A stretch of 64,000 bases of DNA from a virus (Duplodnaviria > Heunggongvirae > Uroviricota > Caudoviricetes): positions 1 to 64,000 of IMG/VR virus record IMGVR_UViG_3300020718_000011; one strand, written 5' to 3'. The position numbers and the translations under genes were made by a program. A model generated the notes under the pieces. It saw only the letters and a program-made list of their open reading frames with translations, ran no database searches and was not told the DNA's origin. Positions 4,886-59,330 of the stretch are shown piece by piece; within the stretch, counting starts at the first letter, position 1; every line of letters begins with the position of its first letter.

Positions 4886-4940
4886 TCTTTAACATTTAGT
4901 ATTTTTTTTGTCAAAGACTTTTTATTATATTTGTATGTTT
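4886..4940 (+). promoter_or_regulatory. class-A phage promoter (TCTTTAACA...TATATTTG)
   Basis: ttctttaacatttagtattttttttgtcaaagactttttattatatttgtatg; -7 box TATATTTG = Bacteroidota TAnnTTTG; about 15 nt before ATG 4955. Confidence 0.6.
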
Positions 4941-4954
4941 AAAAAATGTATTAA

Positions 4955-5290
4955 ATGAAACGACTATTTATACCATTACTGCTATTAATAGGAGCATGTA
5001 ACAATCCAGTAGCCCAGACAAATTTTGACAAGGTTAAGGCAGAACATCCAGCCGGGCGAATATTCTCGGAGCAGCCACAAGTAAATGGAAAAGACTGGGT
5101 TGTCCGGGAAGGGGATGCTATTTACAATGTAGAAATGGATCAAAATGGTGTCCCAAAATCTACATTATTAATTGAAAGGTGGAATCCAGCCTGGGATACT
5201 GCAACACCAAAGAAAGACACAGTTCCAGCAGATGCTCCTCCATTGGATAGTATTAAGAAACTAAACAATGATTCCATAACACACAAATAA
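4955..5290 (+). CDS. putative lipoprotein
   Basis: MKRLFIPLLLLIGACNN signal peptide and lipobox; preceded by canonical phage promoter. Confidence 0.5.
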   Translation: MKRLFIPLLLLIGACNNPVAQTNFDKVKAEHPAGRIFSEQPQVNGKDWVVREGDAIYNVEMDQNGVPKSTLLIERWNPAWDTATPKKDTVPADAPPLDSIKKLNNDSITHK

Positions 5291-5297
5291 TACCAAA

Positions 5298-5603
5298 ATG
5301 AGTTTACCAAAGAAAAGTTCGAACAATGCCAAAGGCATATCGTTAATCGCTTTCCTCCTTATTGGGGGATCAATTTTATTGTGGCAATGTACAGGAAATT
5401 ACCGAGCAAGGTATTTGGGTGGTAGCCAAACAATCAACCTTCCTGCCGGCCAGAAACTGATGAATGTTACCTGGAAGGACAATGAGATCTGGTATCTCAC
5501 ACAGCCAATGTCTCCGAATGAAGTTCCTGTAACTTCTACCTTCCACGAAAAATCTTCTAAGGGAGTTTTGGAGGGTACAATTATTATTAACGAGTCTAAA
5601 TAA
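5298..5603 (+). CDS. membrane protein
   Basis: 101 aa with an N-terminal TM helix (ISLIAFLLIGGSILLW); 8 nt after the upstream gene. Confidence 0.45.
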   Translation: MSLPKKSSNNAKGISLIAFLLIGGSILLWQCTGNYRARYLGGSQTINLPAGQKLMNVTWKDNEIWYLTQPMSPNEVPVTSTFHEKSSKGVLEGTIIINESK

Positions 5604-6025
5604 TTATTAGGGAAACCTGGAAAAAGTGGGTTATGTGGATTCCAGTGGCGGGGTTTTTAACCGTATCTAATCCCGACATAAAAAGGATACTGGATGATAA
5701 GAAATATCTATCCTGGATATATGGAATTTGGCAAGCCCTTGCAATTATTGGAATTATAATTTTAATGCAATATCCGCATGTTGGGAAGTAAACTAAAATG
5801 TGCTTCTGAGGTAATAATGGAACATTGAAAATTACTGATGGGGAATACAAAAATAAGGATAAGGGGAAATTCTATTTTGCTATTGATCCAGTAAATAAAG
5901 ATGCTAAAATCCAACTTTTACCAAAAATTGATGTGACAAGTAGATTTGTTAAAATGGAGCTGATAAAAATACTTTTATCTCAACCGGTAATAGAATAATA
6001 GAACAACTTTTAAAAGATAGAATCA

Positions 6026-16259: not shown

Positions 16260-16622
16260 ATGAAAATTCTAAAATTGGCTGCATTGACAGCTATAGCCGT
16301 AAATGGCTCGAACACAGCAATCCCTGAATGGGCAAAAGAAAGTATTTGGGATCTTACAACAGAAGGTTATATAGCCCCACGGGTTATTGCTGCTGTTTCG
16401 GTAGATCCCCCGGGATACGTAGTAACAGAAAAAGGGCAGAAGCTGGTATCTATGTTGGAGGCATGTTCTGACTATTTCGGGGTGCACCAGGATCTAAAAG
16501 AGGGTGCAGCAGAAGCATACTCCGCAGCCAAAGAGGATACAGGAAAAATTATTAACGAGGGAAAGAAGAAGTTTAACAGTATGTTGGATTTTCTGAAAAT
16601 TCCATTACATGAAGAAAAATGA
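16260..16622 (+). CDS. putative secreted protein
   Basis: N-terminal MKILKLAALTAIAVNGSNTA signal-like segment; TGA/ATG coupling to rtcB. Confidence 0.45.
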   Translation: MKILKLAALTAIAVNGSNTAIPEWAKESIWDLTTEGYIAPRVIAAVSVDPPGYVVTEKGQKLVSMLEACSDYFGVHQDLKEGAAEAYSAAKEDTGKIINEGKKKFNSMLDFLKIPLHEEK

Positions 16623-17836
16623 CAGAAAAACAAATTGCAGTAGATTATTTCTGCGAACCTGATAAGATTGATGAGAATGCTAAAGCCCAATTAGACCAGT
16701 ATAGTAAAATGCCGGGATTGGAGAAGCTTTGTGCTTTCCCTGACATCCACTTTTGTGACGAGAAAGCCATTCCAGTAGGTGTGGCTTTCTCTACTCGGGG
16801 TATATTCTATCCACTCGTAACCGGCAAAGATGTTGGGTGTGGTGTTGGCTATGCCCGAATAGGAAAAAAGTATTTACTAAAACCTTTTGATAAGAGCAAA
16901 CATTACAATGCTTTGGAACGGGCTCATCGTGATATGACCGACGAAGGATTGGGGGGAGGAAATCATTTTCTATCTTTGGAAGAGGATGACGAATATCTTT
17001 ATGTCATTTGCCATACTGGTACAAGGAATAGGGGTATAGCTCTTTACCAAGAAGGCTATCAAATGGTAAAAGAATACTCCAATGAAATTGGGGAGGAGGT
17101 TAAGTATGTTTCCTGGGAATGGATGAGAGAGAAACATCCAGAATACTTAATGAGCGTTTTGAGAATTCCGGATTATGCAACCAAGCGCAGGGCGGATTTC
17201 GTATTCAAAACAATAACCTTCCTTCAAAAGAATGGGTATCTGGAAAACACAAAGCCCATAGAAAAAGATTACTTGTCCCGAGATTATTGGATTAAATCAA
17301 TAATGGATGAATACCATCCTGATCTTGGTATACCAGGGAAGGAGTGGCTCCCAAAGACAAAAAGGACTCCAATTGAAATAAATGGGATACCTTATGAGTG
17401 GCATGATTCGATGCACAATCATTTAGAATTCAAAGAAGATGGATCAATAATACACAGGAAAGGAAGTACGGAAATAAATCCTGGCGATGAGGTAGCTATT
17501 CCCCTTTCGATGACCAGGGGAACATTGATAGTAAAGGTTCATCCGTTTCATGATATAACAGGAGCACTTAATTCTTGTTCTCATGGAGCAGGTAGAAAGC
17601 TATCACGATTTGATTCCATGAAACATTGGCGAACAGTACTGAAGGCTAAGGAAAGAAAAGCATATGAGGAAAGGTTTTCGGAGCTACTTGATAAGAGTGG
17701 GAAATTTCCTTCTGGATACCTCCAGGAATTTGACTACGCATACAAAGATTCGTCGGACATTCTGACGATGCAACCATATTTAAGAAAGGTAACTCAAACA
17801 ATACCTATTGTAACTATTAAATACACAGAAATCTAA
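16619..17836 (+). CDS. rtcB: RNA-splicing ligase RtcB
   Basis: GKDVGCGVGYA, GGGNHFLSLEED, ICHTGTRNRG, WHDSMHNH and SHGAGRKLSR line up with RtcB metal/GTP motifs (GvDIGCGm, GGGNHF, HSGSRG, HNhA, HGAGR); 405 aa. Confidence 0.75.
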   Translation: MTEKQIAVDYFCEPDKIDENAKAQLDQYSKMPGLEKLCAFPDIHFCDEKAIPVGVAFSTRGIFYPLVTGKDVGCGVGYARIGKKYLLKPFDKSKHYNALERAHRDMTDEGLGGGNHFLSLEEDDEYLYVICHTGTRNRGIALYQEGYQMVKEYSNEIGEEVKYVSWEWMREKHPEYLMSVLRIPDYATKRRADFVFKTITFLQKNGYLENTKPIEKDYLSRDYWIKSIMDEYHPDLGIPGKEWLPKTKRTPIEINGIPYEWHDSMHNHLEFKEDGSIIHRKGSTEINPGDEVAIPLSMTRGTLIVKVHPFHDITGALNSCSHGAGRKLSRFDSMKHWRTVLKAKERKAYEERFSELLDKSGKFPSGYLQEFDYAYKDSSDILTMQPYLRKVTQTIPIVTIKYTEI

Positions 17837-23656: not shown

Positions 23657-25159
23657 TTAATCATAATAGTAATCTAATACCACATTATAGGCGAGTAGAT
23701 TTCCAGTATAATTTCCATCTACATCTTTTTCTCTCCAGAAACTAATCTCTCCTCCTTGCCCTCTATTTCCTATAGAAAATGGATCGGTTATAGGAGTTCC
23801 ATCATACCAAGTAGCTCCCCAGTTTCCAGGACCGAAATATTGGATTGTTCCAGCAGGAACTGTTATTTTAAAGTAATCAGGTAGCCACTGAAAGTTAGCA
23901 ATTACCCAAACCGTTGTATCTGAGGTTCCATCTCCTCCACCAATTACTATTTCTCCTGTCCAGTGTGAATATTGGTCAATATTTGCATCTATTAGAAATC
24001 CGTCCTGTATATAAAAAGTTCTTCTTAATGTACTTATACCTTCTGTCAAATTTACTGTTCCATAAAATGGCTGGTCTAAATAAATTACATCCCAATTCCA
24101 AGGTCTCCCAGTAAATGTACCAGATACTACTTGTCCTGCTTGCAAAGCACTTACGTCTAATATAACCTGATTATTTAATTCTACTCCATTTAATGAACAG
24201 TAAGATCCATTTGAGTTTATATATGAATATCCCCTAAAAGCAGATGCCTCCATAGATATATTAGCATTAACATAATTACTTCCTCCATCCTGTGAAAGAT
24301 CATTATCCCAAAAATTATCATTATTGAAAGGAAATGGATTATCGCTATAATGTGTTGACTTATTGTTATTAGAATCCCATTCTAATGAAGGTGAGGAAGA
24401 TTGGTCTTGTCCCCAAATTCCCCCATCTAAAAAATATTTTACGTTTCCAAAATAACCAAATGACAACGGAGGGGTATCTCCAGATTCTACTACCAATGTA
24501 ATTATAGTTGTACTATAATTTGTCTGGTCTATTGTATTCATCTCATATAGGTAGATATTGGTATTGTAATCAGTATACCAATTATCTTGATATCCATTAG
24601 TAAAATTACTAATTAACGTTGTCAATAGATTTGTTGATTGGTCAAATTCTATAGTATTTGATATTTGTGTTGATCCTATCATTAGATGGAATGCCCCGCT
24701 AGTATCTCCAGAATAACCACCTATTATTATTTCCCCTGGAATATATAAGGGTCTCTTAATTAAAATATTTTGATTAACTAACCCTTGTTTTACGTCTACG
24801 TAAATTCCAGAGCCAAAATCAGAGAAGATATCAGTAATATTATATTTACCATTAGCATAAAAACCCAAATTCTCAAATTGAGAAAGTGTTAGAGGAATAT
24901 ACCCATCATAAGTTAGAATCCTCTTTGAAAGGGATCTACTATAAGTTCCATCATATAGTAGTGTTAACTGATCACTATTATTTCCATCATACCTCGCAAT
25001 TAAATTAACGTTACCATCATCTATTAATATCTGATTAGAACTTATTGAATTGACATTAGCTGATTGGACCATTATCTGAATTCCATTAGCTGGTACTAAA
25101 GTAAATGGAAATCCCGAATTAGGTGCATTGTTAATTTGATTTATTATATATGTTGGCAT
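23657..25159 (-). CDS. tail fibre / receptor-binding-like protein
   Basis: 500 aa, Asn/Gly/Ser/Thr/Tyr-rich beta-rich composition typical of fibres; in the fibre operon. Confidence 0.5.
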   Translation of the reverse strand: MPTYIINQINNAPNSGFPFTLVPANGIQIMVQSANVNSISSNQILIDDGNVNLIARYDGNNSDQLTLLYDGTYSRSLSKRILTYDGYIPLTLSQFENLGFYANGKYNITDIFSDFGSGIYVDVKQGLVNQNILIKRPLYIPGEIIIGGYSGDTSGAFHLMIGSTQISNTIEFDQSTNLLTTLISNFTNGYQDNWYTDYNTNIYLYEMNTIDQTNYSTTIITLVVESGDTPPLSFGYFGNVKYFLDGGIWGQDQSSSPSLEWDSNNNKSTHYSDNPFPFNNDNFWDNDLSQDGGSNYVNANISMEASAFRGYSYINSNGSYCSLNGVELNNQVILDVSALQAGQVVSGTFTGRPWNWDVIYLDQPFYGTVNLTEGISTLRRTFYIQDGFLIDANIDQYSHWTGEIVIGGGDGTSDTTVWVIANFQWLPDYFKITVPAGTIQYFGPGNWGATWYDGTPITDPFSIGNRGQGGEISFWREKDVDGNYTGNLLAYNVVLDYYYD

Positions 25160-25644
25160 TTTAAATGGTCATAAATTATATTCACTATATTATTTTCTTT
25201 TATACCTTTATTTGGATACTTTGCCCAGGCTAGGTTAGTTACATCTATATATAGATCATCTACTACAACCCAATTTTCTACCTCATTATTTTGTAGCCAA
25301 TTCAAGATTTCTAATTTCCTATTTTCCTGTATAGATAAACCATTAAATCTAATTATAGGAGTAAATCCTATTGGTCTTTTAATAACCCCTTGTTTTATAT
25401 AAAAATCCCCCATATAATCCAGGGATACTCCAAATCTCCAATCAGAGGATATTACTATCTCACTATTTGTTTCTTCTAATATTCGATTTAATATTTTAAC
25501 TGCATCCTTATCAAAATCTTCAAATTTATTATGGCCTTTTAATTCGGAATATGTTGGAAGACTTGTTTTCTCCCTTATGATTTCCTTATTACTAAGACAC
25601 ATAATGCCATAATGGTCAAGAAATAAAACATTCATAATTTTCAA
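25144..25644 (-). CDS. HAD-fold-like protein (motif I degenerate)
   Basis: NVLFLDHYGIM (DxDG-like, second Asp missing) and WVVVDDLYID (HAD motif IV-like); overlaps the 3' end of the Hint-containing fibre gene. Confidence 0.35.
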   Translation of the reverse strand: MKIMNVLFLDHYGIMCLSNKEIIREKTSLPTYSELKGHNKFEDFDKDAVKILNRILEETNSEIVISSDWRFGVSLDYMGDFYIKQGVIKRPIGFTPIIRFNGLSIQENRKLEILNWLQNNEVENWVVVDDLYIDVTNLAWAKYPNKGIKENNIVNIIYDHLKCQHI

Positions 25645-27442
25645 ATTTTAATAAATTGTTAACATATTTTTCTATAGCAGATAAATCAAATACTTGTTCT
25701 GCTAATCTAAGCCCTTCATAATATTTATTTGGTATGTTTTCAAATTCATTCCTTTCTCTCATATTCCTGTTATCTTTAATAAATTTCATATTCTCTATAG
25801 GGTAAATATTATTATATCTGCATGAAGTTAATATATCATTTCCAAATAGATTTATGTGACCAGAAGTAATAATATTATAGTATTCTACATCCTCATTTAT
25901 AACTTCTTTACTTATTAGTTTAATTTCTTTACTATGTGAATTGAATGTGGTTGTTCCAATTGGAGTATCCTCTGTCATGGGGTATGTAAACATCCCCCTC
26001 TCTTTATTAAAAATCCTATGTTGACTAATGGTTTTTAATTCAGTCCCGTCACTAAAGGTCAATAGGTTATATTTGTTAGAAGTTCCTGGTAATTTAATCC
26101 ATAATGGCTTTGCAGAATCAAATCTTCCTTCATCAAAGTTCCAAACCATTAATGCATCCTCATAAGTAATATCTTCAATATTCTTATAGGAATAGTTAGA
26201 AAGTAATATTCTCGTACCTTTGGCTAAACATAATTCTAATATATTAATAATACCACAATATTGATAACCACTAAGATCTAATGTAGTTCCTGATAAAACT
26301 TGATCAATATAAAGGTTTACCGAGAAGGTAGAAATAGTATTGGTTAATACACATTTAGAATAGCTAATATCTGTAGGGAATGTGAAAACGCTCATATCAT
26401 TTGAATAAGAACACTCATAATGAGAGGTATCATTATTTAAAGAAATAGTACTAAAAGACCATCCATACCCGAATCCATTAAACTCGCAGTGCATAACATC
26501 ACCTTGGTTATTATAATGACTTACATAGGAATTGTTTTTATAGGTTGCATAAATTTCACCAGAATTACTATCTGCCCAGAAATATGATGTATCCTCTACA
26601 TATATTACTATAGTTCCGCTATTATTATTCGTTTGTATTCCTGAACTAAATCCCCTAACGTGACCTTCTATAGATCCAGTATTATAAGGAGCATAATAAG
26701 CCTGATAGTTGCCATTAACATCAACAAATATACTTCCCTGGTTACTATATAGATATACGTAAGCAGATGTTCCAGTTATCGTCCCAGTTATCGTCCCAGA
26801 ATTATTTAATGTGTCTATAGTTACTTCGTAAGTATTTATAATAAAATCGTGTATATTATCATCTCCCCATTGGAAATTAGTTAAATTACTACCACCTAAT
26901 GGTATTCTATTCCCTCTCTTATCTTCTCTCCAATATAATACATCCGATCCAAAATTATATTGTACTTTATCCCAATCCAAAATATATCCTTCCGTTAAAT
27001 TAGCAGTGAGTATACTATAAGCATTTCCGTTCTGATCTGGGGGTGTACCATTTATAGAAGTAATATCAACTACTTCATAATGAGAATTGTTCCATATAAC
27101 AATATCAGCATTATTATATCCGCTCTCTGAAAGTTGTTTCCAGACACCCCTAATATTGGAAGACAATTGACCCACCAGCTGAAAATCTGCTACATAAAAA
27201 CTTGCTATTGCATTCTCATCAATCGTATTAGGGGTTGTACAAAAAGCTATTAGCCCCGCATCTCCTCTATCCGAAATAAATATATGATAACCAGCAGGCA
27301 ATAGATTATTACCCTGGGTAGTTACCCAGTTTGCATAGGTATCGCTAATGATACCACCACCAGAGGATAATAATTCAAAATTATTATCTAAATCCGCCAT
27401 AGTTAATCTTGATCCCTTATCCCTTTTTAATATTAGACTCAT
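25616..27442 (-). CDS. tail-fibre-like protein with C-terminal Hint/intein-like domain plus 68-aa C-terminal module
   Basis: N-terminal MSLILKRDKGSRLTMADLDNNFELL fibre motif; Asn-rich repeats; aa 405-540 CLAKGTRILL..DGTELKTISQHRIF..VEYYNIITSGHINLFGNDILTS-C match intein/Hint blocks A, B, F, G. Confidence 0.6.
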   Translation of the reverse strand: MSLILKRDKGSRLTMADLDNNFELLSSGGGIISDTYANWVTTQGNNLLPAGYHIFISDRGDAGLIAFCTTPNTIDENAIASFYVADFQLVGQLSSNIRGVWKQLSESGYNNADIVIWNNSHYEVVDITSINGTPPDQNGNAYSILTANLTEGYILDWDKVQYNFGSDVLYWREDKRGNRIPLGGSNLTNFQWGDDNIHDFIINTYEVTIDTLNNSGTITGTITGTSAYVYLYSNQGSIFVDVNGNYQAYYAPYNTGSIEGHVRGFSSGIQTNNNSGTIVIYVEDTSYFWADSNSGEIYATYKNNSYVSHYNNQGDVMHCEFNGFGYGWSFSTISLNNDTSHYECSYSNDMSVFTFPTDISYSKCVLTNTISTFSVNLYIDQVLSGTTLDLSGYQYCGIINILELCLAKGTRILLSNYSYKNIEDITYEDALMVWNFDEGRFDSAKPLWIKLPGTSNKYNLLTFSDGTELKTISQHRIFNKERGMFTYPMTEDTPIGTTTFNSHSKEIKLISKEVINEDVEYYNIITSGHINLFGNDILTSCRYNNIYPIENMKFIKDNRNMRERNEFENIPNKYYEGLRLAEQVFDLSAIEKYVNNLLKFENYECFIS

Positions 27443-27453
27443 TTTAACTTCTT

Positions 27454-27780
27454 TTATTTAACTACTGCCATAAAAGGGGAATTGTTTACCTTATGTCCAA
27501 TATCACCTCTAACAATATCTCCAACTTTTAATTGATAGTTAACATCGATAACAATATCACCATTAACTGTTATCTCATAATTTTTTATCATATTAACTGC
27601 ATCTTGTAATGGAATAGATATTAATTCTGCAACAAAATTAGGAAATGCTTCAATAGACAATCTCCTTGTCTTATCTGTTACCTTTGGGTAATATTTTTTA
27701 TACTTACTATTAAAATCCCTTCTTATCTGATCCTTTTGTTGGGCTTTAGATAAAATACCGGATCCATTTGAATTAGTCAT
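27454..27780 (-). CDS. small protein, possible S4-like fold
   Basis: C-terminal ITVNGDIVIDVNYQLKVGDIV resembles the S4 motif (VNG..V....L..GD.I); sits between two fibre genes. Confidence 0.3.
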   Translation of the reverse strand: MTNSNGSGILSKAQQKDQIRRDFNSKYKKYYPKVTDKTRRLSIEAFPNFVAELISIPLQDAVNMIKNYEITVNGDIVIDVNYQLKVGDIVRGDIGHKVNNSPFMAVVK

Positions 27781-29506
27781 TTATATAAGAGTAATTTATA
27801 TTCTTTAGTGTGATCTCATAATATATTGTACCACCTGTTATTGTATTTGTTGCTACTGATGCTAATATTTGTTGGTAATTATCAGCAGGATTAACAGTAT
27901 AGCTAACTTCACCATTAGACAAATCAAAATACCAAATTTTGTTATTAAGATTACTAAATACACCATTTGTTGAATTAACAATGCAAGATGAATTACCAAC
28001 ACTAAGTCCCATTGTAAATACTGGATCATCCCCATCTGCCTTAGTGCCATCTATTAATTGTATTACTCCCCTTTCTATATAAAATCCATATGGTACTGGG
28101 ATTAATGGAATAGTTACAGAACCGATTGACCCTGCTCCACTATCACCATTAAACCCGAATTGTCCTTGATATCTTATAGTATTATAATGATAGTCGGTTG
28201 ATGAAAAAGTAAGATTATTGATTGTACCAAAATCACCCATATATAAATAAAAACCTTGTAAGGATTGATTATTTATATATAAATTAGTTCCCACTATGGT
28301 ACTAAGTCCAGAACCAATAAGAGTACTCAATTCAAAACTACTACTAGTTATGTTTATTCCATAAATATAACTTCCATTGGTAGTAATACTATCCATATTA
28401 CTATTTGTTAATGTTATATTATTCCAATAACTACTATTAGTTAATTCTAAATAATAAACATTTGAATTGGATAGGGTTGTACCCTGAAAACTAGACTCAT
28501 TATTCATATTAAGATTATAAATACTTGACCCAGTAAAAGTACAATTATAAAATTGGGAATAATTATTTATTGTTATTTGGTAGATACTTGTATTTGTTAA
28601 ATTGAGTTCCCCCAGATCAGAATTATTGTTAATGGAAATATTATATAAGGATGAACTATCTATAGTAAGACCAACAATAGAAGAACCATTTGTTACTAAT
28701 ATATCTTCTAGATATGGATTACTACCAATTAATTGATATGCTCCAAAGATAGAATAGTTTAATAGTGTTATTGCTTGTATAGAACCAGTAATATTGTTTA
28801 GGCATTCAAAATAGGAGTCCTCTATATTACAAGAACCAATACCCCTTGATCCATTATAAGGATCCCCCCACCTAAAAACAGCTATTGGATTAAATCCACA
28901 AAAAAACCAGTTTCTTGTTTCATAAGTAATAGAAACTCTATTATTAGAAACAATTTCATGCCTGGATGAGATGAAGTCATCAGCAAAGTCATAGGTAATT
29001 TCATCCCATGAAATATTATAATAAGAAGATATATTATCCCCCGTCGGAGGTAGAGAAATCCAGTCAGTAGTTTCAAGAGTAAAATAATCAACACTAGTTC
29101 CAGTAGATCCTGTTAAATTTTGCCATAATGTTCCACCATAGATAACAACATCATTTATATTATAAGATCCATTATAATCCCAAACCGGAAAATTTAAATA
29201 TTGGGGATTATAAAATTGACCAATCCCATTTGGAGAAAACTGATTTGTAGATAAACCATTAATTAAAATATTAGTACCCCCATACAAAGAAATATCTACC
29301 CCTGATATTATATAAATTTGTCCTGGAATAACACTTGAATTGGATACAAGGGTTTGGGCATCAGTTAATGATAGAGAAGTTATTCCTATAAAGGAAGAAT
29401 CATCATCGGTTATATAGTTAATACAATCCCTTAAATAGGTAAAATTACCATCCATTTCCACGTATGTAAGCTTTGAACCTTTATCTTGTCTTAATATTAG
29501 ACCCAT
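27773..29506 (-). CDS. tail fibre / tailspike-like protein with Asn-rich beta-helix-type repeats
   Basis: N-terminal MGLILRQDKGSKLTYVEMDGNFTYL; long run of N-x-S/T repeat units (NISINNNSDLGELNLTNTSIYQITINNYS...). Confidence 0.55.
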   Translation of the reverse strand: MGLILRQDKGSKLTYVEMDGNFTYLRDCINYITDDDSSFIGITSLSLTDAQTLVSNSSVIPGQIYIISGVDISLYGGTNILINGLSTNQFSPNGIGQFYNPQYLNFPVWDYNGSYNINDVVIYGGTLWQNLTGSTGTSVDYFTLETTDWISLPPTGDNISSYYNISWDEITYDFADDFISSRHEIVSNNRVSITYETRNWFFCGFNPIAVFRWGDPYNGSRGIGSCNIEDSYFECLNNITGSIQAITLLNYSIFGAYQLIGSNPYLEDILVTNGSSIVGLTIDSSSLYNISINNNSDLGELNLTNTSIYQITINNYSQFYNCTFTGSSIYNLNMNNESSFQGTTLSNSNVYYLELTNSSYWNNITLTNSNMDSITTNGSYIYGINITSSSFELSTLIGSGLSTIVGTNLYINNQSLQGFYLYMGDFGTINNLTFSSTDYHYNTIRYQGQFGFNGDSGAGSIGSVTIPLIPVPYGFYIERGVIQLIDGTKADGDDPVFTMGLSVGNSSCIVNSTNGVFSNLNNKIWYFDLSNGEVSYTVNPADNYQQILASVATNTITGGTIYYEITLKNINYSYIND

Positions 29507-33995: not shown

Positions 33996-34559
33996 ATGGC
34001 AAAGACAACAAAAAACAGGAAGGCTCAAAAAGCCGAAGTAACAAAGGTTCAGTTTGACAAGGCACTTGGGGATTACAGCACTAATCTTCAAACCCTTACG
34101 GATATAACTTCCGCACGGGATGTCAAGATAAAGGCAATCATGGATGAGTATGCAGGACAGATTGGAAATCTCCAGTCAGTACAGGGTGCTCAATTTGAAA
34201 CCCTAAAGAACTTCTGCCTGCAGAACAAGGATACTCTCTTCTCCGAAAAGAAAAGGAGTATGAAAACCGCATTACTGATTCTTGGCCTACGAAAAGATAC
34301 ACCAAGTGTTGTCTTGAAAAGCGGAAAGAGGTGGGAAGATGTTATCAAGTTGATGAAGGAAAAACTTCCCGGTTTCATTCGTACCAAGGAGGAGCCCAAC
34401 AAAGATGAGATTTTGGCGAAGAGGTCAGAAATTGGCCTGCAGTTAAATGAATGCGGAATTACAATCAAGCAGGAGGAGAAATTCTTCATTACCCCAATAG
34501 GGAAAGAAGAAACTCCAATTGTAACATTGGCCCCGGAAGCGGTAGAGGAAGTAAAATAA
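33996..34559 (+). CDS. hypothetical coiled-coil protein
   Basis: 187 aa, basic N-terminus, helical-looking. Confidence 0.45.
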   Translation: MAKTTKNRKAQKAEVTKVQFDKALGDYSTNLQTLTDITSARDVKIKAIMDEYAGQIGNLQSVQGAQFETLKNFCLQNKDTLFSEKKRSMKTALLILGLRKDTPSVVLKSGKRWEDVIKLMKEKLPGFIRTKEEPNKDEILAKRSEIGLQLNECGITIKQEEKFFITPIGKEETPIVTLAPEAVEEVK

Positions 34560-40484: not shown

Positions 40485-40590
40485 AATTTAAAAATATGGG
40501 AAAGATAATAATGTTAGGCTTGATAGTAATAATTTTCCTTGTAGTTGCTTGGAAGAATGGATGGTTAAAAAACAATGGTGATGATAATAT

Positions 40591-41343
40591 TTGGCATTAA
40601 AAATAATTAGAATTTTTATGTTGTCTTGGTTCAAAAAATTTGGGGGAAAAGATAATTCACCTAAACCGGATTTAAGTGAATTATTTACTAGTAAAAAATA
40701 TCAGGATATCTTTCAATTGTTTGGAATCCATAGGGTGTATACGCCTGAAAAGATTAAGGATGATCCGAAAAATAAAGAGATGGGATGCTTAAAAATTGGG
40801 TGGTATTATTGTTATGAATTAGATAATGGAATTCTGGAAAATCCAGCCCTTTGGGGATTATTTTATCCTTTACTATTTCCAATTAAAGAAGCAGAAACTT
40901 TACAATTTGCTTCTATTATAGTTTATGGAAAAGAGAAGCGACGCCATATTATAAATAAGGCAACTCAAAGTATTACTGTTGGCCCTGCTTCTATAGAAGA
41001 ATTGGAAATGGCTATTTCCATACATTTCATTATGTGTATGAATGATCTAATAGAAAAGGGTAATATAATAAATTATTCCTGTATACCAAATCTAATTTAT
41101 GTTAGGATGATTGAGCATTGTTTATTATATCCCACTAGACCAGATGGATATAATCCGGTTGGAGTATTAATCTCAACATTGAATTCCTGTATACAAAAAG
41201 GAGATATATTGGATTATAAACATATAATAAAACAATCAGAAAAAATATGTACTAGTGATACTATTATCTCAGGAATCCAGGATATTAAAAGAATGGAGAA
41301 CTTAACAAAAGCGCACTCCCTCCTAAAAAGGAAACATAAATAA
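40591..41343 (+). CDS. KLTKAxxLLKRK C-tail family protein
   Basis: C-terminus GIQDIKRMENLTKAHSLLKRKHK; the IS element begins just after its stop; the true start may be Met-10 (MLSWFKKF). Confidence 0.5.
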   Translation: MALKIIRIFMLSWFKKFGGKDNSPKPDLSELFTSKKYQDIFQLFGIHRVYTPEKIKDDPKNKEMGCLKIGWYYCYELDNGILENPALWGLFYPLLFPIKEAETLQFASIIVYGKEKRRHIINKATQSITVGPASIEELEMAISIHFIMCMNDLIEKGNIINYSCIPNLIYVRMIEHCLLYPTRPDGYNPVGVLISTLNSCIQKGDILDYKHIIKQSEKICTSDTIISGIQDIKRMENLTKAHSLLKRKHK

Positions 41344-41346
41344 CTA

Positions 41347-42314
41347 TATAGGTATAGGCGTTTAGATCGCAATGCTGTAGCTTTGCCTTATGGAGAGGCG
41401 AATTACCTTTGCAGGTGTGAATTCAATTATGTTCCACCAACGGTTTAAAACAGACGACGACTGCCTGGAATATTTATCTGGCGTTAAATGGGAGAATGGA
41501 TTTAGCTGTAAGAGATGCAACAATGATAAATATTGTGCTGGTAAAAAGCCGTTCAACAGACGATGTACCAAATGTCGGTATGAGGAAAGTCCAACATCGG
41601 GTACTATGTTTGACAAGGTTAAATTTTCAATTTTAAAGGCATTTCACATTGCTTTTAAAATAAGTACAAAGAAGAAAGGGATGTCCAGTTTAGAGTTAAG
41701 CAATGAGTTTGACCTGCGCCAAAAGACTTGTTGGGAGTTTAAATGGAAACTACAGCAGGCCATGGCAAGCAGTCTAAAATACCCTTTAACAGGAACGGTA
41801 CACGTAGATGAGTGTTACATTGGGGGCCCCGAAGAGCAAAAAAGAGGTAGAAGTAAAGGCGATAAAAAACTCATTGTTTTAGTATTAGAGATTATTGATG
41901 GTGGTGTAGGCAGAGCATATGCTGAAGTGATAGAACATTCATCGGCTAAAGAATTGGGCGCATTTTTGAGGAAATATGTATCCAAGGATGCAAAGATTAT
42001 ATCGGATGAATGGCTCGGTTATACTCCCTTAAAAACAGAATTTACGAAATTGGAGCAAGTGGCATCGGATGACGGAAAAAACTTTAAAGACATACACATT
42101 CATATAATGAATATAAAAAGCTGGTTAAGAGGTATTCACCACCATTGCAGTAAGGAACGTATTCAAGGATACCTGGATGAATATCACTTTAGATATAACA
42201 GAAGACAAAAAATGGGGGTAATCTTTGATTCCCTTATAAAACGAATGGTCAAAAATGATCCAATACGCTTGTTATCAAAGGATTGATATTGCGACCTAAG
42301 TGCCTATACCTATA
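41347..42314 (+). mobile_element. IS1595-family insertion sequence (about 970 bp)
   Basis: Single transposase ORF flanked by 13-bp terminal inverted repeats TATAGGTATAGGC (41347-41359) / GCCTATACCTATA (42302-42314), and ACTA immediately outside both ends (candidate 4-bp target duplication). Confidence 0.65.
41390..42286 (+). CDS. IS1595-family transposase
   Basis: N-terminal zinc ribbon (CKRC...CTKC) and the hallmark VDECYIGGPEE (DEtyIGG) of ISXO2-like/IS1595 DDE transposases. Confidence 0.75.
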   Translation: MERRITFAGVNSIMFHQRFKTDDDCLEYLSGVKWENGFSCKRCNNDKYCAGKKPFNRRCTKCRYEESPTSGTMFDKVKFSILKAFHIAFKISTKKKGMSSLELSNEFDLRQKTCWEFKWKLQQAMASSLKYPLTGTVHVDECYIGGPEEQKRGRSKGDKKLIVLVLEIIDGGVGRAYAEVIEHSSAKELGAFLRKYVSKDAKIISDEWLGYTPLKTEFTKLEQVASDDGKNFKDIHIHIMNIKSWLRGIHHHCSKERIQGYLDEYHFRYNRRQKMGVIFDSLIKRMVKNDPIRLLSKD

Positions 42315-42649
42315 ACTATATTAATGTATTCCAAAAAGTTGCATAAGCATATCATCCGTTATTTCATTATTTCCCTTTGGTAATGGCTTATCTTCTTTAT
42401 ATGTTTCGACTAAAATTTTTTCAACCTTATAAACAATCTTCTCTTTTTGTTTTCACAAATTAGCTCATGTAGTCTTAACATTTCGTCATCTGTTGACATG
42501 TGTTTAACCCATCTTTTGGCATTATCCATGGATTCCTTATTGCTCTTAGCTGTATTAGCAACATCCCAACAAAACTGCATGCACTCCCCTTACATTTTAA
42601 TTGAGTACAAATCTATCCTATACTCTTGGGGAAGGATTAAATAATTAAT

Positions 42650-43048
42650 ATGGATTATAAATTAATAGCATACGAAAATAATATTCGCCTTACAGAGATT
42701 GGAGAATATGACGATGATGCTAATGAGTATCTAAACAGGAGTAGTTGCTGTGGTCATCTATATGGTGGGGAAGCAGAAATTATTTTGGGTGTTTATGAAG
42801 ACCAGGAATTAAAAGACCTTTCTTTCCTACATGAATTTGCCCATGTAAAATATACTTATTCTGATTGGAGTATTAATCACATACTAACTAGATATGAATG
42901 GGAGCTCCAAGTTTGGAATAATACTTATAAACTAGCCAATGAATATAAGTTCTATATTTCCCCTAATGCAATGAGATGGGCACATGAACAATTAGCTACC
43001 TATATAGGTTGGGAAGAAAGAGAAATTCGTAATTACAAAAGATATTAG
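42650..43048 (+). CDS. hypothetical protein
   Basis: 132-aa ORF. Confidence 0.45.
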   Translation: MDYKLIAYENNIRLTEIGEYDDDANEYLNRSSCCGHLYGGEAEIILGVYEDQELKDLSFLHEFAHVKYTYSDWSINHILTRYEWELQVWNNTYKLANEYKFYISPNAMRWAHEQLATYIGWEEREIRNYKRY

Positions 43049-43049
43049 A

Positions 43050-43313
43050 ATGCCATATATTAAACAAGAACAACGTCCAGAATTAGACGAAGCATTAAAA
43101 CCATTGATAGCAGCATTGAAAGCATCTGAAATGGATCAAGTAGATGGTAAATTAAACTATTCTATTACCAGAATACTAAAAGCAGTATATCCACGAAGCT
43201 ATTTCTCTATGAATAGGGCTCTTGGTGTATTGACTGCTATCCAATTAGAGTATTACAGAAGGGACGTAGCCCCTTACGAAGAGATTAAGGTTCGTGAAAA
43301 TGGTGATTTATAA
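43050..43313 (+). CDS. hypothetical protein
   Basis: 87 aa; 1-nt spacing upstream. Confidence 0.4.
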   Translation: MPYIKQEQRPELDEALKPLIAALKASEMDQVDGKLNYSITRILKAVYPRSYFSMNRALGVLTAIQLEYYRRDVAPYEEIKVRENGDL

Positions 43314-51177: not shown

Positions 51178-51795
51178 CTATATAATTTTATTACTCTTTT
51201 TTAAATTATCTAATTTCCATAATGGTTGTAGATTTGTATAATGGTTTAATTTAATAACCTCTTCGAATGTTGTCGCACTATCTAATGGTATTATGTGGTC
51301 TATATGCCATTTTCCATAATTTTCTATAGTCATTCCATCTACAAATTTAGATTTAATATACTCTACGAAAAATTCAGGTGTACAACCTAATATATCAAAT
51401 GTCTTACTTTCTTTAACTAATCCTTTCCTCTTAAAAGAACCATATACTAAGTTTCTAGTATTGGCTTTAAATTTATACAATGGGTCAATTTTCATTCTGT
51501 TCTTACGGTACTCTTTCATTTCTTCCTTTACTTCAGAATATGGCTTTCTCTTTTTTGGTTTAATCTTATAGTATTCGTTTTGCTTTTTATTAAGTTCTTT
51601 TCTCTTTTCTGGTTCCTTTCTATTTTCTAGTATACTCCCTTTATTTTTTAGATAGTAACTATTAGACTCTTCCTTTATCTTATCCTCATTCTTTTTGTAA
51701 TACTCCTTTTTATATTTCCTAATTTTCTCTTTATTAAGTTCTCTATATTTTTTCTGGTACTCACTCATATTTTGAGTCTTATTGGGTTCTTTCAT
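51178..51795 (-). CDS. HNH homing endonuclease
   Basis: DPLYKF...ILGCTPE..W..DHIIPLDSA..NHYTNLQPLW..DN..KSN; KEYYKKNEDKIKEE N-terminal repeats; ATATATA box upstream. Confidence 0.8.
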   Translation of the reverse strand: MKEPNKTQNMSEYQKKYRELNKEKIRKYKKEYYKKNEDKIKEESNSYYLKNKGSILENRKEPEKRKELNKKQNEYYKIKPKKRKPYSEVKEEMKEYRKNRMKIDPLYKFKANTRNLVYGSFKRKGLVKESKTFDILGCTPEFFVEYIKSKFVDGMTIENYGKWHIDHIIPLDSATTFEEVIKLNHYTNLQPLWKLDNLKKSNKII

Positions 51796-51983: not shown

Positions 51984-52526
51984 ATGGAAAAGACAGCATC
52001 GGCCAACACGGCCACAGACACAAAAACAACCGGAGCACAGGGTGCAGAGGTTGTAGTAACAGAGCAGCCTGCTGCAAGCAGCGTTAGCATCGTTCCAACA
52101 GCGGTAGCCGTAGAGGTACCAAAAGTTCGCCTGTTCTGGCAGAAAGCGTGCGGATCTATGAAGGATTCTACCCTTACGCCAATTAAAGACGACGAAGTAT
52201 TTGTAAGGACCTCTCACCAGGTAGGCGTTATCCCTGCCGGCGCACCGGATGGCACTGCACCAGTTGCAGAGACCGTTTACAGCATGAAGCGCGGTAAAAG
52301 GATCTACTACACACCTTCTTCTTTCATTACCGATGCACAGCGTCTCGCTGCTGATACCGCGACTGACCTCAAGGTAAAAGAGAAAGAGGCAGCAGCCAAG
52401 GTAAAGGCTGATGAAAAAGCCAAGAAAGAGCAGGCGAAAAAGGATGCGGCAGCAGCCGGTCCAAAAGTAGTAGCTGGCCCAACAGTGGTAGCGGCTCCGG
52501 CAACAATTACCGAAAAATCTCTCTAA
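51984..52526 (+). CDS. Ala/Lys/Thr-rich protein, paralog A of a duplicated pair
   Basis: Core VPKVRLFWQKACGS..TLTPIKDDEVFVRT.H.VGVIPAGA..GTAPV..VYSMKRGKRIYYTPSSFITDAQR with AKVKADEKAKKEQAKKDAAAAGPKVVAG tail; GC and codon usage above background; own promoter and bidirectional terminator. Confidence 0.55.
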   Translation: MEKTASANTATDTKTTGAQGAEVVVTEQPAASSVSIVPTAVAVEVPKVRLFWQKACGSMKDSTLTPIKDDEVFVRTSHQVGVIPAGAPDGTAPVAETVYSMKRGKRIYYTPSSFITDAQRLAADTATDLKVKEKEAAAKVKADEKAKKEQAKKDAAAAGPKVVAGPTVVAAPATITEKSL

Positions 52527-54921: not shown

Positions 54922-55734
54922 ATGAAAGGTTATATTTATAAAATAACAAGCCCATCTGGTAAAGTTTATATAGGTCAAACTAAAAATATTTCTAATAGGA
55001 AGAATAGTTATAAAGGATTTAATACTCCTAGCACTTCTATAAAAGCTCAAATTAAATTATATAATAGTCTTAGTAAATATGGATGGGATAATCATAAATT
55101 TGAAGTTATAGATGAATGTCAATTTTGTGGTATTAATAATTGGCTATTGGATTCTTTAGAAATTCATTGGATAAATGAATATGATAGTTTTAATAATGGA
55201 TTAAACTGTACTAAAGGTGGATCTGGCCAGTGCGGACATAAACATTCAATAGAAGCTAAACTAAAAATGGGTAACTCAATGAAGGGAAGGGTTATGTCAG
55301 AGCAAACTAAACAAAAAATAAGTAATTCAAACAAAGGAATACTTATTCACACAAAAAGAAAACCTCTTTCTGATGAGACCAAACAAAGAATAAGTAATTC
55401 AAATAAAGGAAGAACTCATGCTAAATACGAGAGAACCCCTCATTCAGAGGAAACTAAACAAAAGATGAGTAATTCTCAAAAGGGTAGGGTACCATCAGAA
55501 GAAACTAAAAAGAAAATAAGTAATTCTAAAAAAGGAACGGTATGTTCAGAAGAAACTAAACAAAAGATGAGTAATTCTCAAAAGGGTAGGGTTACATCAG
55601 AAGAAACTAAACAAAAAATAAGTAGTTCACACAAAGGAAAGAAACAAATCCCGCATTCAGAAGAAACTAAAAAGAAAATAAGTAATTCTCTTAAGTCAAA
55701 GAAAACTAATTTGAATAATCTACTTCTATTCTAA
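54922..55734 (+). CDS. GIY-YIG homing endonuclease with NUMOD3-like repeats
   Basis: MKGYIYKITSPSGKVYIGQT (GIY-YIG), KYGWDNHKFEVI, NGLNCTKGG; about 7 repeated SEETKQKISNS(N/Q)KG(R) modules; ATATATA box upstream. Confidence 0.8.
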   Translation: MKGYIYKITSPSGKVYIGQTKNISNRKNSYKGFNTPSTSIKAQIKLYNSLSKYGWDNHKFEVIDECQFCGINNWLLDSLEIHWINEYDSFNNGLNCTKGGSGQCGHKHSIEAKLKMGNSMKGRVMSEQTKQKISNSNKGILIHTKRKPLSDETKQRISNSNKGRTHAKYERTPHSEETKQKMSNSQKGRVPSEETKKKISNSKKGTVCSEETKQKMSNSQKGRVTSEETKQKISSSHKGKKQIPHSEETKKKISNSLKSKKTNLNNLLLF

Positions 55735-56939: not shown

Positions 56940-57653
56940 ATGAGCAACAACAAACACAGTAAAGGACGCGGCGCAGCCGGTCACACAACAGGCAGCGAGC
57001 ACACTTCTGCTGAACACACTGACACTGCAATCGACACTGCAATCGACACTGCAGAACACACTGACACCGCAACGGAAGAAACCAAAACGGAAACTACCGA
57101 GGCCAGCGCAGAACACACCGACCCCGCAACAGAAACTGCAGAACACACAGAGCCAGCACCAGAAGTGAAAGTTACTGAAACACCTGCTGCTTCTACCCTG
57201 TCTATCGTGCCAACCGCAGTGGCCAAGGAAGTACCAAAAGTTCGTCTCTTCTGGCAGAAAGCGTGCGGATCAATAAAAGAAAGCACTCTCACCCCTATCA
57301 AGGATGATGAAGTATTCGTTCGCACTGCCCACACCGTAGGTGTCATCCCTGCAGGTGCAGCAGAAGGTACTGCACCTGTTATCGAAATCGTTTACAGCAT
57401 GAAGCGCGGTAAAAGGATCTACTACACACCTTCTTCTTTCATTACCGATGCACAGCGCGTTGCAGCCGACCTGGCCACTAATACGAAGAACGCAGAAAAG
57501 GAAACCGCAGCCAAAGTAAAGGCTGATGAAAAACTGAAAAAAGAGCAGGCGAAAAAGGACGCAGCCGCAGCCGGTCCTAAGGTAGTAGCGGGAGCAACAA
57601 TAGTTGCCGCACCAGCAGCAGCCACAGAAACCGCTACCGAAGAAGTAAAATAA
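56940..57653 (+). CDS. Ala/Lys/Thr-rich protein, paralog B
   Basis: Same conserved core and AKVKADEKLKKEQAKKDAAAAGPKVVAG tail as 51984-52526, plus N-terminal AEHTDTAIDTAIDTAEHTDTA repeats; tandem promoters upstream; terminator downstream. Confidence 0.55.
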   Translation: MSNNKHSKGRGAAGHTTGSEHTSAEHTDTAIDTAIDTAEHTDTATEETKTETTEASAEHTDPATETAEHTEPAPEVKVTETPAASTLSIVPTAVAKEVPKVRLFWQKACGSIKESTLTPIKDDEVFVRTAHTVGVIPAGAAEGTAPVIEIVYSMKRGKRIYYTPSSFITDAQRVAADLATNTKNAEKETAAKVKADEKLKKEQAKKDAAAAGPKVVAGATIVAAPAAATETATEEVK

Positions 57654-58464: not shown

Positions 58465-58661
58465 TTTAATAATAATTATTTAAGCGTACCTAAATTGTTT
58501 GACTATGATAAGGAATAAAGGTTCTCCATAAGTAGTAACTTATTTATTATATTATATTTAGATTATGTCCGAAGACCGAATAAGTCCAGAGTAGGAAAAG
58601 ATTAATTTAGTTTGAGAATGGCAGGATAGAATTAGTTACTATTCTGCCATTTTTGTTTTTT
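58465..58661 (+). ncRNA. candidate about 190-nt non-coding transcript (promoter to terminator, no ORF)
   Basis: Class-A promoter 58404-58461 followed by only tiny ORFs (under 12 codons) and the strong terminator at 58617-58661. Confidence 0.3.
58617..58661 (+). terminator. plus-strand intrinsic terminator
   Basis: tggcaggatag-aattagtta-ctattctgcca: 11-bp stem (one G.U), then TTTTTGTTTTTT; overlaps the 3' end of minus-strand GIY-YIG gene. Confidence 0.6.
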
Positions 58662-59330
58662 AGAGTGAGCTATCTTTAATGAATTACTCATCTTTTGTTT
58701 GGCTTCAGGAGTATTAAATTTTTCCTTCATCATAAGTTTTAATTTTAACTTATGCTCATCAGATAATGGTTTTCTTTTAGCCCTATTATTACCTTCCCTA
58801 ATTTTTTGTTTAGTCTCTTCAGATATAGGATTTCTAGTTTTACCCTTTAATGAGATGGATATTTTCTTCTTAGTTTCATCCGTAACAAATTTACGTTTAT
58901 CTATTTTTGGTTGATCTATTTTAGCCTTAGCTATTTTTGGTTTACTATCTCTATCTTTTATTAATCCCAATAAATTTCTATTTTTATTTCCTTTTAATGA
59001 ATTGGATATTTTTATTTTCATCTCTTCGGATATACTAGTAGTTCCACCACCTCCTTCCGTACAATTTAATCCATCCTTAAATGAGTTAAATTTAGAAATC
59101 CAGTATATCTCTCTTTCAAAAAGTATAGGGTCCTTATTATTATCCAATGTGAGTTCTTCTATTACTTCTTTAGTATGATTCTCCCATCCATATTTATTTA
59201 CGGACCAATATAATTTATGTTGTTTCCTATCAACTCCATATTTATATCTTTCGTTTATACTATTTTTAGTTGTACACCCTATATAAATACGTCCGGTTGG
59301 GCTAGTAATTTTATAGATAAGTCCTTTCAT
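58632..59330 (-). CDS. GIY-YIG homing endonuclease with NUMOD3-like repeats
   Basis: MKGLIYKITSPTGRIYIGCT, KYGWENHTKEVIEEL, DGLNCTEGGGG; repeated SEEMKIKISNSLKG / TDETKKKISISLKG / SEETKQKIREGN modules. Confidence 0.8.
   Translation of the reverse strand: MKGLIYKITSPTGRIYIGCTTKNSINERYKYGVDRKQHKLYWSVNKYGWENHTKEVIEELTLDNNKDPILFEREIYWISKFNSFKDGLNCTEGGGGTTSISEEMKIKISNSLKGNKNRNLLGLIKDRDSKPKIAKAKIDQPKIDKRKFVTDETKKKISISLKGKTRNPISEETKQKIREGNNRAKRKPLSDEHKLKLKLMMKEKFNTPEAKQKMSNSLKIAHSKKQKWQNSN

Follow-up and report, generated by a model that had tools for sequence, protein, structure and literature searches.

The locus considered here lies within a stretch of 64,000 nucleotides of viral DNA (hereafter the window), in which a transposase gene bounded by inverted repeats is found in the midst of phage-like genes. 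It raises the question of whether this gene belongs to a complete insertion sequence (IS) that can still move, where such an element would begin and end, and in what kind of replicon it has come to reside. Our comparisons make it very likely that the window consists of carrier DNA plus a complete, single-gene IS of 964 bp, which belongs to a Bacteroidota-dwelling lineage of the IS1595 family and is probably still functional.

The boundaries of the element were established by comparing its junctions with those of about 50 bacterial copies. In this line-up, the bacterial copies always start with TAGGTATAGGC and always end with GCCTATACCTA, with an 8-bp duplication outside, and nucleotide homology between the window and the bacterial copies begins and ceases at these ends. 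On this basis the IS spans positions 41349-42312 (964 bp, which is among the commonest lengths within a lineage whose members measure 954-980 bp). The left inverted repeat (41349-41375, plus strand) opens with TAGGTATAGGC; its 11 terminal bp are repeated perfectly, and over its full length of 27 bp it matches the right repeat at 24 positions. The latter (42286-42312, minus strand; plus-strand end GCCTATACCTA), recovered both by a repeat finder and by family comparison, shares the last base of the transposase stop codon. The same terminal sequence is present in copies from dozens of Bacteroidota genomes. Within the 64 kb, the 17-nt end sequence is confined to the two tips of the IS, compared to 0.13 occurrences expected by chance, which indicates that the inverted repeat is more than a chance pairing. 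The element is flanked on its left (41341-41348) and on its right (42313-42320) by the target-site duplication TAACTATA, the phase of which is set by the bacterial copies. Perfect 8-bp duplications are found in 46 of these relatives; they are 90% A+T and yield the consensus TAAATTTA (T-A-A-A-T-T-T-A), with which TAACTATA agrees at six of the eight positions. The repeat finder also reported a 10-bp direct repeat, ATAACTATAT, at 41340-41349 and 42312-42321, which overlaps the tips of the inverted repeats.

An earlier note on this DNA had described an intact IS1595-family element at 41347-42314, bounded by 13-bp inverted repeats (TATAGGTATAGGC), with ACTA directly outside as a candidate target duplication. 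The family and the intactness of the element are upheld, but its ends are now placed at 41349 and 42312. The 13-bp repeat is present as described at 41347-41359, with its reverse complement at 42302-42314, and ACTA is likewise found at 41343-41346 and 42315-42318; the two outermost bases of the repeat (TA), however, belong to the duplication, and the true duplication is the 8-bp TAACTATA, of the length that is the family norm. Since each base by which the junction is moved outward adds one to the apparent inverted repeat and takes two from the apparent duplication, the 13-bp repeat with ACTA represents the same junction shifted by two bases. A foreign origin cannot be read from base composition: the IS has a GC content of 38.1%, a value reached by 79 of 631 segments taken within the 64 kb, and this sign was therefore rejected.

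The single gene, tnp (41390-42286, plus strand), codes for a transposase of 298 aa, which was previously noted to contain the hallmark motif HVDECYIGGPEEQKRG and an N-terminal zinc ribbon; both are confirmed by this open reading frame and its Pfam matches. The match to PF12762 (DDE_Tnp_IS1595, E value 1.1e-26, profile positions 2-153 of 153) places the catalytic domain at residues 133-270, and the match to PF12760 (Zn_ribbon_IS1595, E value 1.2e-7, 32 bits against a cut-off of 25.4) covers residues 20-64. The NCBIfam model NF033547, "IS1595 family transposase", is matched with 162.9 bits (cut-off, 75). Examination of a MAFFT alignment of 120 homologues, 73-98% identical to the window transposase, shows that the CxxC...CxxC pattern of the zinc ribbon (C41-x2-C44...C59-x2-C62) is invariant, as are D140 (in HVDE) and D206 (in SDEW). 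The catalytic triad of the family consists of D, D and E, N or H, followed downstream by a basic residue; N241 (in HIMN.K.W.RG) and E264 are the candidates for its third member. In this alignment 130 columns are at least 97% conserved, among them the four zinc-ribbon cysteines, D140, D206 and the HIMN.K.W.RG.HHHC block, and the window transposase deviates at none of them. The pN/pS ratio of the transposase versus its relatives is 0.06-0.14, which argues that the IS lineage is under selection for function.

The distance between the left end of the IS and the ATG of tnp is 41 bp, and an octamer that ends 4 nt before this ATG, TAGCTTTG (41378-41385, plus strand), is a candidate promoter. It matches TAnnTTTG, the -7 promoter consensus of Bacteroidota, known from promoter studies in Bacteroides and Flavobacterium. 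TAnnTTTG is present within the first 70 nt in 36 of 52 unique left ends; when the left ends are read by eye, it stands just before the start of tnp, and most of the other ends are one base off. An enrichment of TAnnTTTG across the whole window was tried as a sign of a Bacteroidota host and rejected as not significant (99 observed versus 88 ± 8.5 expected), so that only the conserved position of the motif carries weight. This position suggests an IS-borne promoter at TAGCTTTG and a leaderless or nearly leaderless tnp mRNA, wherein the Bacteroidota-type -7 box inside the left end of the IS would drive the gene. A scan for sigma-70 promoters and terminators revealed nothing above chance, and an Rfam scan of positions 40500-43100 returned noise only. 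A hairpin, UUUGCCUU-AUGGA-GAGGCGAA, can be drawn at 41382-41402 with the tnp start codon in its loop. Its z-score is -1.1, and although a similar 6-bp stem is retained by 12 diverged left ends, these show almost no covariation; the small hairpin may represent a translational or DNA-binding element, but we claim no function for it.

The modular arrangement of the transposase would account for the observed ends as follows. The N-terminal zinc ribbon would recognise the terminal repeats (TAGGTATAGGC), and the RNase-H-like, DDE-type domain would, judging from the chemistry of the family, join the ends of the IS to staggered cuts 8 bp apart. The target would be AT-rich, with a preference close to TAAATTTA, and repair of the gaps would produce the 8-bp duplication, which is itself observed.

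The window is part of a far longer contig, ERZ27271905 k141_26427 of the ENA (473,921 bp), in which it was found by exact-protein look-ups and where it corresponds to about 361,021-425,020 in reverse orientation. The genome comes from lake water, and circumstantial evidence makes it likely that this replicon is a huge phage. About 130 genes were called in approximately 62 kb (~2.1 per kb), their products averaging close to 140 aa, and about 13% of them have a Pfam match (~87% are without), versus roughly 73% collection-wide according to the tool description. Among the products with PHROG matches are Mu Gam, two GIY-YIG homing endonucleases, endonuclease VII, RtcB, a nucleotidyltransferase and a primase-type N-terminal domain. 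The reading frames for the Mu Gam-like end-protection protein (33996-34559), the RtcB-type RNA ligase (16619-17836) and the endonuclease VII-like protein (51178-51795) fit a large phage of the virulent type. The two GIY-YIG/NUMOD3 homing endonuclease genes (54922-55734, plus strand, and 58632-59330, minus strand) both match PHROG 314 (E values 3e-42 and 9e-27, respectively) and represent a second class of mobile element in the same region. In addition, a block of large ORFan genes on the minus strand (23657-29506) codes for proteins of 500, 166, 608 and 577 aa. The C-terminal part of the 608-aa protein (25616-27442, minus strand) is a Hint-like module of about 200 residues (404-601). Hundreds of proteins of tail-fibre architecture (with Mtd_N, fn3 and collagen modules) end in a sequence that is 55-74% identical to this module; one of these homologues is located in a block of very large, structural-looking genes. 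The 608-aa protein is best read as a probable tail-fibre module whose C-terminus would cleave itself. A tblastn search of the INPHARED phages with the 500-aa and 608-aa proteins gave no match. A paralogous pair of genes is also present in the window (51984-52526 and 56940-57653), with ~78% nucleotide identity over roughly 400 bp in a secondary BLAST match.

The main alternative, which we consider rather unlikely, is that the IS is real but sits in a megaplasmid, in some other kind of extrachromosomal element or in an unusual island of a Bacteroidota chromosome. A search of the window and of 7-8 kb on either side of it (~79 kb of the 474-kb contig) revealed no virion hallmark gene (capsid, portal or terminase), and the earlier description of a phage genome is to be read as probable. 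A carrier of another kind would be consistent with this result, with the 474-kb length of the contig, with the exact-sequence probes of IMG/VR, which found nothing, and with several cellular-looking genes (DegP-like protease, Band_7, PRK/CoaE and DUF179). The first of these genes was rejected as a clue to the nature of the replicon, its matches being mostly bacterial contamination in phage records. The gene density, the short products and the scarcity of Pfam matches argue for a phage instead, as do the GIY-YIG homing endonucleases, endonuclease VII, Mu Gam and the tail-fibre-like protein with its Hint module, and genes for conjugation, partition or housekeeping functions were not seen in the ~79 kb. 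If the carrier were not a phage, the presence of an IS in it would be entirely ordinary. The huge phage remains our preferred reading of the carrier.

Within this phage-like replicon, the IS occupies a spacer of ~94 bp between convergent genes, and no open reading frame is broken. The stop codon of the upstream frame (40618-41343 as called) is a TAA at 41341-41343, in accord with the earlier observation that the element lies immediately after a stop, and its bases are the first three of the left duplication. The duplication regenerates this stop codon, and the upstream product is therefore unchanged. On the other side, the 335 bp (42315-42649) that precede the gene at 42650 had been taken for a promoter-less stretch of about 330 bp; they hold a 56-aa reading frame on the minus strand (42410-42580), called by two of three gene callers (JGI and Logan assemblies), and the strand skews turn negative there. 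Neither PHROGs nor Pfam contains a homologue of this 56-aa frame. A match to TAnnTTTG, TAGATTTG (42608-42615, minus strand), is found 28 nt upstream of its ATG. The location in a convergent-gene spacer, together with the regenerated stop codon, indicates that the insertion is near-neutral, and the proposal that it disrupted local regulation finds no support, both neighbouring frames being whole. An unlikely further reading is that transcription continuing out of tnp is antisense to the 56-aa gene that faces it, and that a regulatory effect of this kind has favoured retention of the insertion.

Both junctions are 100% identical in five assemblies (ERZ27271905, JGI 3300020716 with a contig of 74 kb, JGI 3300021139, Logan SRR4029378 and Logan SRR398176), and two more assemblies cover the right junction only and break inside the IS, for a total of seven assemblies from three pipelines. 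Two of the assemblies compared (L085 and L086) begin at the same window position, 40737, inside the upstream reading frame. The contigs L087 and L088 start inside the IS, at window positions 42167 and 42146, respectively, and breaks of this kind suggest that other variants of the IS are present in those samples. When the IS is taken out in silico together with one of the two duplicated octamers, the empty site ...AAACATAAATAACTATATTAATGTATTCC... (also written ...GGAAACATAAATAACTATATTAATGTATTCC...) is obtained. A search for this site, which had been proposed as a comparison with related phages, was negative in all seven assemblies, and its exact pattern is absent from IMG/VR. The filled left-junction pattern is likewise absent from IMG/VR, and neither the left-flank pattern nor the lineage-specific left end of the IS was found in JGI metagenome contigs; the carrier genome is evidently not in those collections. 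The upstream gene (40591-41343), which the earlier note had assigned to a gene family, has no paralogue in the window (BLASTP), no relatives in IMG/VR and no homologue outside the carrier genome, matching only itself among 5.8 billion proteins. It thus gave no related phages, and the comparison of empty sites is impossible by this route. On our reading, the IS would have transposed into the replicating DNA of a very large, phage-like replicon inside an IS-bearing Bacteroidota cell and would have landed, at little or no cost, in the convergent spacer, where it is now present in every assembly of the carrier genome that was found.

The lineage to which the IS belongs, apparently unnamed, is widespread in Bacteroidota. 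A scan of one genome per species yielded 378 stretches that encode relatives, nearly all of them in this phylum, and the lineage is both mobile and multicopy, with many copies per genome at different sites. Flavobacterium sp. NK2020 (CP051546), for example, harbors at least 24 copies (74-76% amino acid identity). At two loci of this genome (L025, 1933-3923, and L032, 1934-3923), two related copies are arranged in tandem, 62 bp apart, and both copies in L025 are flanked by separate 8-bp duplications. The relatives in Chitinophagales and Ferruginibacter metagenome-assembled genomes (MAGs) are 80-83% identical, and those in the freshwater Bacteroidetes MAGs T7_bin-146 and Kiruna_bin-03880 reach 95-96% at the amino acid and 91-93% at the nucleotide level. 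Of the closest reference-genome copies, one adjoins a protein with a T9SS C-terminal sorting domain and another adjoins RecQ, neighbours which indicate that these copies sit in genuine Bacteroidota chromosomes. The search of host genomes for identical copies, as recommended earlier, was therefore productive in part: multicopy relatives were recovered from Bacteroidota, but none with more than 93% nucleotide identity in bacterial reference genomes. DNA searches of INPHARED with the IS and both flanks gave nothing useful, and tblastn of the transposase against known phages detected only two relatives, 26-27% identical, in unannotated faecal contigs.

Closer copies are found in metagenomes. Hundreds of contigs of ~965-1100 bp, identified through the protein database, encode transposases that are 74-98% identical, and contigs of this length are typical of a repeat at whose ends assemblies break off. 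In another ENA assembly (ERZ27229598 k141_50462), a copy in different flanks is identical at 963 of 964 nucleotides, and the single difference is a synonymous change. The 8-bp flanks of this copy do not match each other, and the contig may be a collapsed repeat, or else another part of the 474-kb genome itself. Copies that are 96.8% identical were found on three more contigs, again in different surroundings, and one of these contigs comes from the metagenome of a Swedish lake. The near-identical copy in different surroundings points to a very recent transposition of this exact lineage, in keeping with the earlier suggestion of recent residence in a host that carries this IS.

A second phage contig also harbors the lineage. 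The sole match in IMG/VR, IMGVR_UViG_3300029268_000006 (132 kb), contains a copy of 868 bp at 4909-5776, with the same ends and a perfect duplication, TAATTCTA (locus 4901-5784), from which ~96 bp of the zinc-ribbon region have been deleted. The neighbours of this copy code for a T4-type topoisomerase II and a nucleoside deoxyribosyltransferase, and the IS is the only sequence shared between this contig and the window. A copy in an unrelated, T4-like contig implies that the lineage has entered large phage genomes at least twice.

The decayed state of this second copy, in a phage contig with an IS of the same family, would agree with the view that the transposase in the window is a defective relic or a domesticated phage gene rather than part of a mobile IS, as would the presence of the insertion in all seven assemblies with no empty site among them, which may mean that it is old in its lineage. 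We nevertheless regard this as very unlikely, since both inverted repeats and the perfect 8-bp duplication are intact, the reading frame is full length with all conserved residues kept, and a copy that differs by a single nucleotide in 964 is found in other flanks. A domesticated gene had been named in advance as the outcome that would overturn the IS interpretation, and the abundance of repeat-bounded homologues with 8-bp duplications in bacterial genomes speaks for an IS. It is hardly credible that the junctions are an assembly artefact, in which a multicopy host IS was threaded wrongly into a phage contig: the repeat does break assemblies, as in the contigs that start inside it (L087 and L088) and in the short IS-only contigs with mismatched flanks, but both junctions are the same in five assemblies from the JGI, ENA and Logan pipelines and from different runs, phage sequence runs on at both sides, and a perfect, AT-rich 8-bp duplication is not something that a chimera creates.

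With a functional IS in a probable huge phage as the favoured interpretation, the element also bears on the biology of its carrier. Transposition requires that donor and target be in one cell, and the IS therefore points to a Bacteroidota host for this 474-kb, ORFan-rich replicon. Its relatives provide a lead to that host, the freshwater Bacteroidota MAGs being nearest, followed by Chitinophagales and Ferruginibacter. The corrected boundaries, the 8-bp duplication and the consensus TAAATTTA should aid the annotation of such elements and account for assembly breaks; existing knowledge of how IS1595 elements work is unchanged. The two cases, in the window and in the T4-like contig, are relevant to the question of whether transposable elements are selected against less strongly in phages with larger genomes. 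In this regard, a functional IS may be stably carried by the ~474-kb phage, which would then serve as a vehicle between Bacteroidota hosts in lakes. We consider this unlikely; if true, it would run contrary to the view of phages as poor shuttles of IS, and, given the second, unrelated large phage contig, IS cargo would seem to be less constrained in phages with large genomes.

As judged from its sequence features, the element would be classed among known systems with the IS1595 family, the catalytic domain, the zinc ribbon, the inverted repeats, the 8-bp duplication and the multicopy mobility of the lineage all being of the expected kind. Named groups within that family are ISPna2, ISH4, IS1016, IS1595, ISSod11, ISNwi1 and ISNha5. 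To our knowledge, the inverted repeat of the element (TAGGTATAGGCGTTTAG) matches no subgroup consensus of the family, and even the nearest relatives annotated on plasmids do not exceed 44% identity. Like the members of the family (Siguier, Gagnevin and Chandler 2009, cited in PMC12561309), the element is ~1 kb long and multicopy, with a single transposase gene in which a zinc ribbon is followed by an ISXO2-like, DDE-type domain, with short terminal inverted repeats and with an 8-bp, AT-rich target duplication. Duplications in the family are 8 bp and A/T-rich, with 7-9 bp in some subgroups (PMC12561309).

A known relative is ISApl4 of Actinobacillus pleuropneumoniae, a member of the IS1016 subgroup of 712 bp with a transposase of 217 aa and the inverted repeat GGGGCTGTACTAGA (PMC12561309). 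The two elements share a DDE transposase with the DE-Y-G motif, perfect inverted repeats, 8-bp direct repeats that are A/T-rich by preference and many copies per genome. Unlike ISApl4, which belongs to Gammaproteobacteria, the window element belongs to Bacteroidota, is longer (964 bp and 298 aa) and has a different inverted repeat; near the third catalytic residue it reads HIMNIKSW, whereas ISApl4 reads HINGIENFW. The Bacteroidota relatives have the same terminal sequence and a reading frame of the same length, measure 954-980 bp overall, and also show the 8-bp duplication and, in front of the ATG, the -7-like box; those copies are located in bacterial chromosomes, whereas the window copy is located in a huge, phage-like replicon.

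The location itself has precedents. In a phage survey summarised by PMC3429520, 92% of the phages are without an IS and the average is one copy per 346 kb, in agreement with the earlier remark that a bacterial IS in a phage is uncommon. As in the surveyed cases, the window holds a bacterial IS in a phage genome at a site where no gene is broken. At one IS per 346 kb, a single copy in 474 kb is unremarkable; its presence in a phage of 40 kb would be more of a surprise. The presence of an IS in a phage-like genome is uncommon, not new.
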